Assembly: GCF_964194155.1 (NCBI RefSeq) | Contig: NC_135909.1 | Location: 12,648,001-12,712,000, forward strand | Length of the DNA: 64,000 bases | From: Cetorhinus maximus | Lineage: Eukaryota | Reading direction: 5' to 3' | In this document: positions 1,175-46,671 of the stretch, in pieces | Numbering within the stretch: the first letter of the stretch is position 1 | Layout of the letters: each line of letters opens with the position of its first letter | Notes under the pieces: generated by a model | What the model saw: only the letters and a program-made list of their open reading frames with translations | Database searches by the model: none | What the model was told of the DNA's origin: nothing | Program-made: the position numbers and the translations under genes

Positions 1175-1207
1175 ATTAGCATATATCTGTCAGACTGTCT
1201 ATTTAAT
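1175..1207 (+). promoter_or_regulatory. H2B promoter: octamer-like ATTAGCAT plus TATA-like TATTTAA, with CCAAT/ATTGG boxes upstream (1055-1150)
   Basis: ATTAGCAT at 1175-1182 is a one-base variant of the H2B octamer ATTTGCAT. The same element lies upstream of the other two H2B genes. Confidence 0.7.
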
Positions 1208-1259
1208 GAGCGGACGGAAGGGGTTTGGTTTATTTCTGTGGCTGAAATTGAGATTGAAG

Positions 1260-1637
1260 ATGGTTGAAGAGAAGAAGAAACCAGTTGCTAAGAAGGGCGC
1301 CAAGAAAGCGGTGAATAAGCCGTCAGGAAAGGGCGGCAAGAAGCGGCGAAAGTCGAGGAAGGAGAGTTACGCCATCTACATCTACAAAGTGATGAAGCAG
1401 GTTCATCCCGACACCGGCATCTCCTCTAAGGCCATGAGCATCATGAACTCGTTCGTGAACGATATTTTCGAGCGCATCGCGGGTGAGGCTTCCCGCCTGG
1501 CCCATTACAACAAGCGCAGCACCATCAGCTCCCGGGAGATCCAGACCGCCGTGCGCCTGCTGCTGCCCGGGGAACTGGCCAAGCACGCCGTGTCGGAAGG
1601 GACAAAGGCGGTGACCAAGTACACCAGCTCCAAGTAA
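1260..1637 (+). CDS. H2B: Histone H2B, replication-dependent (125 aa)
   Basis: ATG at 1260. [26 protein letters not shown]...AVTKYTSSK histone fold, intronless, with a downstream stem-loop. Confidence 0.98.
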
Positions 1638-1676
1638 AACCCCCGAACGGACTGAAAAACACATTCACAACACAAA

Positions 1677-1717
1677 GGCTCTTTTAAGAGCCACTCACAA
1701 TCTCTACTAAGGAGCTG
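1677..1717 (+). promoter_or_regulatory. Histone 3' stem-loop and U7 downstream element (H2B)
   Basis: GGCTCTTTTAAGAGCC at 1677-1692; AAGGAGCTG at about 1709-1717. Confidence 0.95.
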
Positions 1718-2446
1718 CACCCGACATCTTCCTACTGGATTATTATAATATAAAATAACTTCCACTGCTGTTAGTGTCTCCTGTCCTGTAACCCAGACAC
1801 TAACCCTTTAATTAGCTCATCGGCCTTCGCTTTGTGCTGAAAGCGGTTATTCTGTTATCACAGCCTTTAAGTGACCTCATTAGCTGCTGTTTTCAACTTT
1901 AATTGTCCCTTCCCCCAATTCCTGAAACAGTTACTGAGTCATTTTATTAATTTTCCGCAGGGTAACAGCCGGAGTGGGATTATTACAGAGCGGAATAAGA
2001 ACAGTCTGAGGACTCGATCAGCTCCCTCTTTACAGCGAAGGGTGTTCGGTTCAGAGTGAAGTCTGAACGGAATGTTTCACTCCTGGGAAAGCGGTGACCC
2101 GGGATTGATTCCCTCCCGGGACAGTTAGAAAGCGACAGGAGAATGAACCACATTTAAACAAAATGATAAAACCCGCGCCTGCGATTGGTGATGACACGAG
2201 CTGAATAAAACCAAATAAAGAGCAGGGATTTGAAATCTCAGACCAAAGACGACATTTACTTTAATCCGCTTCTTTCCCGCAGTGAAATTGGCGGGCTTTT
2301 TAAAATGGACATTTTTCTGGTTCTGACGGTTATTTGCAAATCCCGCCCTTTTCTGCTTCCATTTATCTGATTGGTGAAGAATATAGGCAAATAAGTGGAT
2401 TGAACAGAGACCAATGAGACGAGTTTTCAGTTTATAAGAACAGTAA

Positions 2447-2890
<444 letters not shown>

Positions 2891-2920
2891 AGCGGCCATT
2901 CTTTAATCTAATAACCCAAA

Positions 2921-2960
2921 GGCTCTTTTCAGAGCCACTCACAGAGTCTGTGAAAGGGTG
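2921..2960 (+). promoter_or_regulatory. Histone 3' stem-loop and HDE (H2A)
   Basis: GGCTCTTTTCAGAGCC at 2921-2936; purine-rich AAAGGGTG downstream. Confidence 0.93.
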
Positions 2961-3029
2961 ACCTATTGTCTGTCCGCGGCCGGACCAAATTTGTAAGTGA
3001 TTCTGGACCAATAATGGCGAAGGAAGAAC

Positions 3030-3530
3030 TCGCACAACGTTTGAGAAGTATTTAGTTGAGCCCTCGAAACGACATAACTAAAAGTACTATGGGCTAAGTG
3101 CTGGAGAATAGAATTAGAATAGATAGGTGCTTGATGATCGGCACGGTTACGACGGGCCTGTTTCTGTGCTGTATAACGCTATGACCTCTCTAGTGCAACA
3201 ACATCCTTCCTATACGGGCAGATGAGATTTTCCCAGGCTGCTGTGGAAGGCAAGGGAGGAGATTGCAGGGACCCTGTTAATAATTTTCAAATCTTTGACC
3301 ACAGGCGAGGTGAAAGGACTGGAGGACAGCTAATGGTTTCCATTATTCAAAAAGGGGGCTAGGGATAAACCAAAGAACTATAGGCCAGTCAGTCTTAACG
3401 TCAGTGGTTGGGAAACTTATGAAAAAGATTCTGAGGGACACAATTAATTTCCACTTGGAGAGGCAAGGATTAATCAAGGATAGTCAGTCCGGCACGGACA
3501 CGAGCGGTCTGTTTCTTTGCTGTATAACTG
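3030..3530 (+). mobile_element. CR1-like LINE fragments (3' ends and a piece of ORF2) between H2A and H3
   Basis: Decayed ORF2 sequence (...FKKG.RDKPKNYRPVS...) and two CR1-type 3' ends ending in GCTGTATAAC. Confidence 0.7.
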
Positions 3531-3846
3531 ACTAAAAACAACCATCAAAAATATCTGCGCAATGGAGGGTTACTCTCGGACAATCGCTTCATGTTCATAG
3601 TGGTACCTTATAATAACAATGAGTATTGACTTACAAACCGTACCTCACCCTGTGCCGCAATTCGTTGGAAAAAAATCCGTGGCCTAAAATATTCGCAGAC
3701 ATAACCTGAGCTGCAATTGATAACTGCATCATCTGTATTCTCTCAATTCTACAACCTCTATGTCGACAAGACAAATAAACCGGTGCAAGGGAGAATAAAT
3801 TTTATCTTCGAGTTGTTTAAGTGCTGGTGTGTTTAACAGGAGATCG

Positions 3847-3887
3847 CAGCTCTTTCATTTGTCGATTTAGTGGCTCTTAAAAGAGCC
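3847..3887 (-). promoter_or_regulatory. Histone 3' stem-loop and HDE (H3)
   Basis: Reverse complement of GGCTCTTTTAAGAGCC at 3872-3887; AAAGAGCTG at 3847-3855. Confidence 0.95.
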
Positions 3888-3916
3888 TTTGTTGTACTTG
3901 GTGCTGAAGCCGGGTT

Positions 3917-4522
<606 letters not shown>

Positions 4523-5353
4523 TTAATTGGCCATTTCAAAAATTCCGCCAATTTTTTGCAGCCGTTTCCCGTCTCGAGAATATGCTTCGTTCTTCCCTTT
4601 TTTGAAAATTAAAAATACAATTTTTCACTCTCACTCGCTATTTCCTAACCCCAATTTAATTCCAGTTCATGTGATCTGTCCCGGCAATTTTTAAACCAGG
4701 TATCATCCTGGTGAATCTGCTCATTTTTGGACAGAAACACCAGTCTGTTGTTTGAACTGTGTAAAGTCAGTGCTGAATTTCCGAGGCAAAAATTGAAGGA
4801 CTGTCCATTGCTCCCTACAGCACAACTAACCCTCGAAATCGCCGCTCACTTCGAGGAATGGAATGGGAAATAAAATAGAAACGGTGCTGGGGGCATCAGA
4901 CCCCTTCCCATTGCCCTCATTCTGGGCTGTTCATGCCGATAAAGAGCGGCTCGAATTTCCGTTATTCCCAGTCTGAGTCTACACGAACATACGTGCGAAT
5001 ATTTGGATTAGGAGCAGGAGGAGGCCACTCAGCCCATCAAGCCTGCCTCGCCTGATCCTGATATGATTGTAACCTCAAATCCACTGACGGATTGAACGGC
5101 TGGTGTCAGAGGAACCGCCAGATCCTGTCATTACTACCTGACTAATTATTCATTTAAAACAAAACCTATCGAAAATATGAGGCAGTGGAGAGGCCTTTCA
5201 GTGTCAGTGCAGAATGGGCCATCCGGGTAAATAAACCATTAAAAAGATTCTCAGTACATTCCCGTCCAGAACAAATCAGGCACTAACATTCCAGATCAAA
5301 GCGCATCCCAGCTCCCGTTCCCAGGTTTCTGCTCTCTCTGTGAGGCGGTGCGT

Positions 5354-5369
5354 GGCTCTGAAAAGAGCC
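5354..5369 (-). promoter_or_regulatory. Histone 3' stem-loop (H4)
   Basis: Reverse complement of GGCTCTTTTCAGAGCC; purine-rich AGAGAGAGCAG downstream. Confidence 0.93.
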
Positions 5370-5404
5370 TTTGTTGTTGTGTTTGGTAGAGAGAGTCGAG
5401 TTGT

Positions 5405-5725
<321 letters not shown>

Positions 5726-5774
5726 TCACTCAGATCGCTGCTGAATATGAGCGATGAGCTGTTTCGGTTCCTCC

Positions 5775-5806
5775 TTTATAGAGCCCGCCCCGACCTGACT
5801 GAGAAA
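5775..5806 (-). promoter_or_regulatory. H4 promoter: TATAAA, GC box and site II-like element
   Basis: Minus strand reads TTTCTCAGTCAGGTCGGGGCGGGCTCTATAAA. Confidence 0.75.
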
Positions 5807-6469
5807 GGAGCATAGAGTGAGAGGCGGGACAGGGAGGAGACTAAATGACAGACAGAACAGAGGAATGTCTATGATAATCCAGCTCCACCCCCTGCCTGTC
5901 GAAACGACATTTTATTTAATTGTCGACAATGGAAGTTAACACAGCGCTCGGCACAAAACTTATCGATTGGAGCTTCATGTTCAACGGTTCTAGAAACCCG
6001 CAGTTTTTAATTGCAGGCCTTTACAAATAAAATTCTGTAATATTCCAGCCCAAGTACATACACTATACCCTGTCAAATCCGCCTGTTTCCACTTCACTCC
6101 CAGCTTCTGTTCTATCCCCACACACCTCCCCTCCAGGCGGGTTGAGCAGTTTACCGACACCTCACTCAAGCTGAATTAGACAAACTCATGTGTTGGGCTT
6201 TGAGTTGTAACGCGGGGTTACTCCGCCCTGGTAACTGTCTTACACACTCTCACCTTGAATCTGTGAAAAGGGAACGAGCAGAAACTGACAGAGCAGCTGA
6301 ACAAATCCCCAGTTACAATGGTGCACGGACCCCGCTGTTTTATTGCAGATTGGGGGAGGGGCTGGGTATAGTGCATGTCAGTGAGATACCGGGAATTTTC
6401 AATTGAATATAAATCACTTCAGTGTGAAACCTGCTCCCAGCGCCGGGACAGGGACATTTGATTCGGGGA

Positions 6470-6511
6470 TCAGCTCTTTCCTGAGAGACGTGGGCGGCTC
6501 TGAGAAGAGCC
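6470..6511 (-). promoter_or_regulatory. Histone 3' stem-loop and HDE (H1)
   Basis: Reverse complement of GGCTCTTCTCAGAGCC at 6496-6511; AAAGAGCTG downstream. Confidence 0.93.
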
Positions 6512-6547
6512 TTTGTGTTCAGAGGTTTACAATTTGCTCGGCTGGTT

Positions 6548-7219
6548 TCATTTCTTTCCTGGCGCTGCTTTCTTAGCCTTTGCTGCTTTCACTTTGGGCT
6601 TGGCCTTCGACGATTTATCCACTTTTTTTAAAACCTTTCCGCCCGTCACCTTCTTGGCGGGAGATTTTTTCTTCAGCGCTGCTTTCTTCACCGCCTTTTT
6701 TGGAGTTGCCGCCTTCTTGCTGCTTGTTTTCTTGACTGTTGCTTTCTTCGCTGGGGATTTCTTGGCTGTTACTTTCTTGGCTGGAGATTTCTTAGCTGCT
6801 GGTTTTTTTGTTTTCACCTTCTTGGCCGCTGGTTTCTTCACTAAAGATTTCTTGGCTGTTGGTTTCTTCTCCTTCTTTCCCACTTTCCCCTGGGATTCCT
6901 TCTTAGGGATTTTGAAGGAGCCGGAGGCGCCCTGTCCCTTTACCTGCACCAGGGAGCCGCTCTCCACCTTCCTCCTGATACTGAGCCTGATCTGGGAGCC
7001 GAGCTTCCCCACATCGACACCGCTGCCAGACAAAGCTTTCTTTATCGCGGCCAGGGACATCCCCTTGCGATCGCTGCAACCCGCCACAATCTTGAGGATC
7101 TGTTCGCCTAACTTGGGACCGGCTGCCTTCGATCGGGAAGCCGCCTTCTTCTTCTTGGGAGGTTTGACTTGAGCGGCAGCGGCTGGAGGAGCCGTTTCGG
7201 CGGCTGCAGTATCAGTCAT
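6548..7219 (-). CDS. H1: Histone H1 (223 aa), replication-dependent, with a divergent globular domain
   Basis: SLAAIKKAL...LVQVKGQGASGSFK winged-helix motifs; Lys/Ala/Pro-rich tail with SPAK/TPKK motifs; H1-box AAACACA at 7364-7370. Confidence 0.96.
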   Translation of the reverse strand: MTDTAAAETAPPAAAAQVKPPKKKKAASRSKAAGPKLGEQILKIVAGCSDRKGMSLAAIKKALSGSGVDVGKLGSQIRLSIRRKVESGSLVQVKGQGASGSFKIPKKESQGKVGKKEKKPTAKKSLVKKPAAKKVKTKKPAAKKSPAKKVTAKKSPAKKATVKKTSSKKAATPKKAVKKAALKKKSPAKKVTGGKVLKKVDKSSKAKPKVKAAKAKKAAPGKK

Positions 7220-40703: not shown

Positions 40704-40793
40704 GGCTCGTTGGTCTAGGGGCATGATTCTCGCTTTGGAATTTTTGTTGAGTTGATATGCGAGAGGTCCCGGGTTAAAATCCCGGACGAGCCC
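40704..40793 (+). tRNA. tRNA-Pro-TGG: tRNA-Pro(TGG) with an 18-nt intron-like insertion at 40740-40757; probably inactive
   Basis: GGCTCGTTGGTCTAGGGG...CTCGCTTTGGA[ATTTTTGTTGAGTTGATA]TGCGAG...ACGAGCCC; G37>A, C56>A and a T5 run inside the insertion. Confidence 0.75.
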
Positions 40794-41423: not shown

Positions 41424-41505
41424 GATGAGCTGGTCGAGAGGATAAGGCGATGGACTGCTAATCCATTGTGCTTTGCACGCGTGGGTTCGAATCCCACTTC
41501 CGTCG
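41424..41505 (+). pseudogene. tRNA-Ser(GCT), degenerate acceptor and D stems
   Basis: 82-nt Ser-GCT body with GATGAGC/TTCCGTC acceptor mismatches. Confidence 0.75.
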
Positions 41506-44457: not shown

Positions 44458-44530
44458 TGCTGAAACCCGGGATTGAACCAGGGACCTTTAGATCTTCAGT
44501 CTAACGCTCTCCCAACTGAGCTATTTCGGC
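44458..44530 (-). tRNA. tRNA-Phe-GAA: tRNA-Phe(GAA)
   Basis: Near-canonical vertebrate Phe; one acceptor mismatch (C3.A70); only T3 immediately downstream. Confidence 0.85.
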
Positions 44531-45870: not shown

Positions 45871-45960
45871 TGCTCGTTGGTCTAAGGGCATGATTCTCGC
45901 TTTGGGATTTCCTTTGAATTAATATGCGAGAGGTCCCGGGTTCAATTCCCGGACGAGCCC
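45871..45960 (+). tRNA. tRNA-Pro-TGG: tRNA-Pro(TGG) with an 18-nt intron at 45907-45924
   Basis: CTCGCTTTGGG[ATTTCCTTTGAATTAATA]TGCGAG; intact B box GGTTCAATTCC; G1>T; T4 terminator at about 45975. Confidence 0.8.
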
Positions 45961-46589
45961 ATCTTAATGCAGCATTTTCTATCGCGCTCGAGGTGGTGGC
46001 AGTTCCGGAAATCAGGACCAGGTTTGAACACCCGGGAAGTCATTGCAGGGAATGCATCACCTCAACACACGTGACATAAATGAATGCCAAGTTTAAAGAA
46101 CGTCTCTCCGTGCCATGAGACTCTGAATTCATTCTAATGCATCAAATGAGGGAACTGTCTATTTGTGGATTCACGTGGGAGGCTGATTGCACTCAGTTTC
46201 AATCTTGACTGAAAGGACAAGCAGAACTGGGAACCCCAGTGTTTCATTTTAATTTACCATATTTTAGCTGTGTTCCGGTGCTTGCAGTGAGCTGGGAGGG
46301 GTTTCCTTTTGCGACCAAATGCTTGTATGTTCCGGTCTTTCCGCGGTGGGTTTTCACACTGTGTAGAAACATGTTGGATATTAGGGTGAAGTGTTGAAGT
46401 GTTTCACATCAGTCGGTTTGCAACAGTCACTGATCTGTTGTGGTGCACATTTATTTTAATGACATAAACTACGTTTCCATCTTTACACATCTGGCCGAAT
46501 ATTTAGGGGCTGTACCAAAGAGGATCATTTATTTCAACGGTTCATGGATGCAAAAAGTATAGAAGGGGGTTTAATAACCCGTCTTTTGT

Positions 46590-46671
46590 GACGAGGTGGC
46601 CGAGAGGTTAAGGCGATGGACTGCTAATCCATTGTGCTTTGCACACGTGGGTTCGAATCCCACCTTCGTCG
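46590..46671 (+). tRNA. tRNA-Ser-GCT: tRNA-Ser(GCT), apparently intact
   Basis: GACGAGG/CTTCGTC acceptor pairs; anticodon GCT, long variable arm, GGTTCGAATCC. Confidence 0.9.

Follow-up and report, generated by a model that had tools for sequence, protein, structure and literature searches.

Transcription by Pol III, cutting by TSEN and joining by RtcB are established steps in the biology of eukaryotic tRNAs (PMC10275265, PMC10485636, PMC8479045), whose introns measure between 6 and 133 nt (PMC4090602). In human, four families carry introns, namely Tyr-GUA, Ile-UAU, Arg-UCU and Leu-CAA, and these are spliced by TSEN and RtcB (PMC10275265, PMC8479045). As far as the cited accounts describe them, their introns are short, sit at 37/38, set a purine at intron position -3 against a pyrimidine at position 32, and vary within a family. 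Human TSEN needs this anticodon-intron pair for cleavage at the 3' site (PMC8479045), and in fly reporters splicing is less efficient with a U-A pair than with a C-G pair (PMC6614914). For proline, the closest described system is that of budding yeast, in which tRNA-Pro(UGG) has 10 intron-containing genes (PMC4090602) and every gene of the family bears the intron (PMC10275265). Shark genomes have also been described as holding abundant intron-containing tRNA loci, expanded and clustered with histone genes (bioRxiv 10.1101/2025.06.08.657570); the main text of that preprint, in the part available to us, leaves the isotypes unnamed, puts no splicing feature to the test and draws no line between intact and damaged loci, and its Fig. 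3A or its supplements may list the isotypes.

We will focus here on a stretch of 64,000 nucleotides from the basking shark (hereafter the window), in which an earlier note had singled out an intron-containing tRNA-Pro(TGG) gene and taken Pro to stand outside the usual intron classes of vertebrates. The host is indeed a vertebrate, a shark, and Pro is absent from the four human intron families. The shark Pro genes resemble those described for yeast in isotype, anticodon and canonical site, but they coexist with intronless genes and bear introns with three anticodons. They likewise differ from the human families as described, in that the shark classes are Pro (AGG, CGG and TGG) and Arg-TCG, in that the Pro pair is U-A and not C-G, and in that about 110 intron copies stand beside intact intronless genes for every anticodon, whereas the human families number about 5-13 copies. 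Judging from the sequences, we think it probable that the flagged stretch is itself a dead copy, and that it belongs to an old intron-bearing Pro family whose intact members are likely transcribed by Pol III and spliced by TSEN.

The flagged copy and the array around it

The window lies on contig C32, where duplicated histone/tRNA units form an array over about 9-21.5 Mb. At 45871-45960, a tRNA-Pro(TGG) body of 72 bases is split after G37 by 18 nt at 37/38 (Table 1), as the earlier note had read it. This is confirmed by the sequence itself, by the intronless paralogues and by the intron search of ARAGORN, which calls a tRNA-Pro(tgg) with an 18-nt intron and exactly these ends. The program puts the junction one base earlier, and we set it at 37/38 because the intronless paralogues have G37. 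The finer claims also hold in the sequence, namely that A(-3) faces U32 and A(-4) faces U33, that the insert is free of T4 runs, and that the B box is intact.

Table 1. Features of the flagged gene copy and of its tRNA neighbours (window coordinates)
Feature	Position	Strand	Remarks
5' exon, tRNA positions 1-37	45871-45906	+	anticodon TGG 45903-45905; G37 at 45906; C20
18-nt intron at 37/38	45907-45924	+	possible pairs: A(-3) (45922) and U32; A(-4) and U33; T(-6) and G35
3' exon, positions 38-73	45925-45960	+	B box intact; A59>T
T4 run, 14 bases past the gene	45975-45978	+	likely Pol III terminator (putative function)
Second intron-bearing Pro(TGG) copy (L125), about 5 kb upstream of the flagged copy	40704-40793	+	G37>A; C56>A (B box broken)
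Intronless tRNA-Ser(GCT), downstream partner of the flagged copy in the duplicated unit	46590-46671	+	ARAGORN, Rfam
Twin of this tRNA-Ser(GCT)	41424-41505
Intronless tRNA-Phe(GAA), histone/tRNA array neighbour	44458-44530	-	ARAGORN, Rfam

An exact exon-gap-exon pattern has 50 matches in the genome and none in a reversed control, so that the insert is not there by chance. The flagged copy (L013) agrees with the intronless Pro genes at 45 of the 49 exon sites that were left free by the search pattern, and its differences from these genes are G1>T (45871), G15>A (45885), T20>C and A59>T. It lacks the paired 1-72 and the G15-C48 by which a functional tRNA-Pro is recognised, and it is missed both by ARAGORN without the intron search and by Rfam, in which it scores below the gathering threshold. 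Because G1>T breaks the 1-72 pair and G15>A breaks the 15-48 core pair of the standard tRNA structure, this copy is likely a pseudogene. So, likely, is L125, whose intron (40740-40757) contains a T5 run.

Histone genes (H2B, H2A, H3, H4 and H1) with 3' stem-loops are found at 1206-7219 and 55416-63762 of the window with tRNA genes interspersed, an interleaving that is like that of the clusters described for ray, human and zebrafish in the source excerpts at hand. The H1 of the window has its nearest relatives in the basking shark (97%) and the white shark, followed by other sharks and rays, which points to a host of the lamniform type. A word search in sequencing runs recovered 35-54% of the words of the stretch in 4 runs from one basking-shark sample, which may be the source data. 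A further 16 runs contain 5-14% of the words, which carries no evidential weight; shares outside this organism were small, and among its RNA runs none contained the stretch. On contig C32 there are also Ser-GCT bodies with GTT and GCA anticodons, which ARAGORN calls Asn and Cys (C32:13,355,048 and 21,314,113). A degenerate tRNA-like stretch at another locus (L131, 4102-4190, minus strand) is called Ile by ARAGORN and resembles a tRNA-derived repeat.

Census and integrity of the intron-bearing genes

A pattern for any Pro body has 130 matches in the genome, 100 of which were listed. The 125 loci that were fetched comprise 110 intron-bearing Pro copies, 7 Pro bodies with an intron and a TGC anticodon, and 8 intronless genes. 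As the patterns were exact, these counts are lower bounds: there are at least 110 intron-bearing Pro genes (57 TGG, 22 AGG and 31 CGG), a figure that is approximate because the near-identical array copies of C32 may be partly over-assembled. The 57 TGG genes are the outcome of the count, in this genome, that the earlier note had proposed for Pro-TGG genes with a 37/38 intron. An additional intron-bearing Pro class, as it had postulated, is borne out for TGG, but introns reach further than it had supposed, AGG, CGG and Arg-TCG being intron-bearing as well.

The intronless Pro genes found in 4 Gb number only 8 (TGG 4, AGG 3, CGG 1); they form small clusters on C6, C7, C8 and C16, and all of them are intact with terminators close by. 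The junction pattern finds only 7 canonical ones, the eighth having a G31-C39 stem. Among the intron-bearing copies, all 14 Pro bodies that ARAGORN calls in 864 kb of C32 have the intron, and six copies lie off this contig, on C4, C7, C12 (two) and C22 (two). In those of C4 and C7 the body is damaged and the flanks match array copies over short stretches, while those of C12 and C22 look older. In dispersed copies a T run directly follows base 73. In particular, the two copies of C12 (L039 and L040) share one and the same body; their introns, 18 nt and 12 nt long, are 33% identical, their 50-base flanks are 54-56% identical, and their T runs lie at +3 and +2.

In all 110 copies the insert is located at 37/38 by comparison with the intronless paralogues, and its length is 12-19 nt. 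A spliceosomal intron was rejected on this length and on the lack of GT-AG ends, and a tRNA-derived SINE on the hundreds of bases that the array copies share in both flanks. Many of these copies are miscalled Ile, Thr, Tyr, Leu, Lys or Ser by ARAGORN, which is a trap for annotation; its alternative parses (for instance Ile-TAT with an intron at 34) were discarded, since the site is non-canonical and the bodies are those of Pro.

When scored for 20 stem pairs and 19 invariant bases, 61 of the 110 copies are intact (TGG 26 of 57, AGG 16 of 22, CGG 19 of 31), and the other 49 are damaged. From G1>T, the earlier note had suspected that the functional source lies elsewhere, and it had made its reading depend on there being an intact intron-bearing Pro-TGG gene in this genome or in related ones; the 26 intact TGG copies bear it out on both points. 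If the anticodon-intron pair and the absence of an internal T4 run are also required, 27 copies are left (12 TGG and 15 AGG), every one of which has a run of at least four Ts within 20 bases downstream. A T4 run lies inside the intron of 14 of the 26 intact TGG copies, where it could end transcription early. Some vertebrate tRNA genes read through T4.

Seven TGG copies, the flagged one included, form a clade that shares G1>T and was duplicated after this damage. Seven other Pro-intron copies (L138-L144) are without most of the D arm and were duplicated after its deletion. The earlier note had held the D-arm variant to be diagnostic, which it is not, since C20 is also found in the intronless TGG gene L110 and cannot serve alone. 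The exon variants that occur in intron copies only are C20 in AGG, C20 together with C31-G39 in TGG, and A16 in CGG. The seven intron-bearing bodies with a TGC (Ala) anticodon (L111-L117, contig C32) have a broken 32:-3 pair, two of them keep all stems, and they are likely dead, anticodon-shifted copies.

Introns are not limited to Pro in this genome. Of 37 pattern matches for Arg-TCG, 36 have 17 nt inserted at 37/38 (contig C32, for example L189-L217; the intronless L188 is on C27), with G(-3) opposite the cytosine at position 32 in all matches listed. Among 30 fetched bodies, one intronless gene included, 27 have no broken stem pair, and a T run directly follows the gene in most. A more divergent Arg-TCG with a 16-nt insert is found near C32:21,498,874. 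Arg-TCT, a known vertebrate intron class, is present in the array too (58 matches); its inserts are similar in length, and it has the layout of the human intron families.

Anticodon-intron pairing

The pair between a pyrimidine at 32 and a purine at -3 is present in 54 of 57 TGG copies, in all 22 AGG copies, in 1 of 31 CGG copies and in none of the 7 TGC offshoots; in the flagged copy it is U-A. Across nine intron lineages, a register is kept at 32:-3 (8 of 9), 33:-4 (9 of 9) and 35:-6 (9 of 9), that is 26 of 27, whereas shuffles give about 4.5 per position and reach 26 of 27 in none of 100,000 trials; this result is supportive rather than a clean test, as the lineages are related by descent and the choice of the three positions was made with the data in view. 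The 34:-5 and 36:-7 pairs are not kept across these lineages (4 and 2, respectively). A canonical intron is expected to form a weak anticodon-intron helix that leaves a 3-nt bulge at the 3' site; constrained minimum-energy folds form the helix in only 1 of 15 precursors.

The CGG family (L060, L062-L089, L124) has U32·U and retains U33:A, C34:G and G35:Y; three TGG copies derive from it via C34>T. By analogy with the pairing need of human TSEN, this branch is predicted to be poorly cut at the 3' site, and the U-A and U·U variants offer natural substrates for the TSEN pairing rule. As for the enzyme, the catalytic domain of the splicing endonuclease (PF01974) has two exon-sized matches over the cut-off in this genome. 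In site, length and 32:-3 pair, the TGG and AGG introns have the make-up of the canonical TSEN-spliced tRNA intron.

Divergence, origin and competing readings

At active human and mouse tRNA genes, divergence is elevated over the 20 upstream bases and within introns (PMC6130373). For the TGG set (49 distinct copies of 57 rows, leaving out 7 TGC-anticodon rows and L014), parsimony counts per site amount to 2.1 changes for the inner 5' flank, 1.78 for the intron, 0.49 for the exons (0.68 at free sites) and 0.61 for the outer flank. The exon values err on the low side, since it was by exon patterns that most of the copies had been detected, and gene conversion or alignment noise could inflate the counts. 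The inner flank (p 6e-9) and the intron (p 4e-6) vary about three times as fast as the outer flank, and the free exon sites change more slowly than the intron (p 3e-4). The corresponding values are 0.90, 0.39, 0.06 (exons) and 0.14 (outer flank) in 14 AGG copies, and 0.55, 0.89, 0.24 and 0.23 in CGG. Two long-flank TGG profiles kept only 7 distinct copies and gave nothing significant, and they were redone with shorter flanks. In the intronless Ser-GCT control the flank signature is not clear (0.75 vs 0.50, p 0.14), and the bodies varied more than the flanks. Between lineages, the introns are 33-72% identical and the 50-base flanks mostly 34-72% (global alignment, with no random baseline), while 9 of 11 lineage representatives agree with intronless Pro at 47-49 of the 49 free exon sites (L061 at 45, L038 at 42). 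The raised divergence of inner flanks and introns within the families fits transcription together with selection on the exons.

The family could instead be a once-functional class that is by now mostly a relic, few or none of its members being spliced today and the 8 intronless genes supplying the proline tRNA. With nearly half of the copies damaged, with the G1>T and D-arm-deleted clades duplicated after their damage, with exons that change no more slowly than the outer flanks in the TGG and CGG arrays (p 0.3-1.0) and with Ser-GCT neighbours that drift too, this reading has its arguments. We nevertheless find it unlikely, because TGG exon sites change about 2.6-fold more slowly than the co-transcribed intron, and because in the C12 pair and the AGG array the bodies have stayed near-perfect and the terminators close although the introns diverge. 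Less likely still, the copies would be tRNA-like repeats or insulators, Pol III elements that are transcribed but unspliced and are retained for the sake of their A and B boxes, their RNA being degraded or remaining a non-coding precursor. The flank signature indicates transcription at most, the CGG family displays it without the anticodon-intron pair, and many introns contain T4 runs; but the acceptor and anticodon stems are conserved, which goes beyond the boxes alone, the insert position is invariant, its 3' end keeps the helix register, and the long flanks common to the copies give no sign of retroposition. Finally, the damage to the flagged copy and the possible over-assembly of the array might evoke an assembly artefact, or an insertion that befell a single duplicated pseudogene by chance. 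We give this reading almost no credit, as it is already refuted by the spread of the copies over five large contigs, with introns that cannot be aligned and bodies that are intact.

Coming back to a family whose intact members would be transcribed and spliced, the flanks of the AGG, CGG and TGG families are homologous to one another at 69-80% (AGG-TGG downstream, about 70% over 224 bases; AGG-CGG upstream, 80% over 75), and the two C22 loci are linked by their flanks, as are the two C12 loci. No flank link was found between the intron-bearing families and any intronless locus. The simplest reading is that of one ancestral intron-bearing gene followed by anticodon switches, from which the C12 pair could be separate. 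Compared by eye, the Arg-TCT and Arg-TCG introns show no likeness that would make them the source of the Pro intron, and the ORFs around the C12 pair provide no obvious synteny anchor. An old intron-bearing Pro gene would have been duplicated, its anticodon switching among AGG, CGG and TGG, with a few dispersed loci left (C12 and C22) and an amplification of about a hundredfold in the histone/tRNA array of C32. Given the signature of flank and intron divergence, Pol III would transcribe the intact members, from their A and B boxes to the T run. As site, length and register suggest, TSEN would then recognise the body and cut at 37/38 by means of the 32:-3 pair, and RtcB would join the exons. 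The spliced product would be equal or nearly equal to that of the 8 intronless genes, so that the family would add tRNA dose and not a new decoding ability; indeed nothing forces splicing, as there are intact intronless genes for all three anticodons.

Vertebrate Pro introns are not named in the titles and abstract openings of the literature searched, and the available parts of PMC8450103, PMC4536317, PMC9858662 and PMC10485636 contain nothing on them; automated annotations such as GtRNAdb may have them. A metagenome scan for Pro 3' exons preceded by an intron gave a single match, a lone Pro 3' half without its 5' half (L220, 1501-1537).

The list of spliced vertebrate tRNAs rests largely on mammals. 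In this shark, four more anticodon classes carry canonical introns, and a sizeable share of its many intron-containing tRNA genes belongs to them. Tentatively, and with less confidence than for the family itself, sharks may have a wider splicing repertoire than the four human families, with Pro-AGG, Pro-CGG, Pro-TGG and Arg-TCG spliced as well; the intron-bearing Pro genes would then supply much of the proline tRNA, and the coexistence of old intron-bearing and intronless lineages would possibly be an ancestral state of jawed vertebrates that was lost towards mammals. Genes that share a body within one genome, some with the intron and some without it, provide a natural test of the role of the intron, be it in modification, in dose or as free-intron RNA, and their coexistence among the Pro genes is also a test of how tRNA introns are gained or lost.
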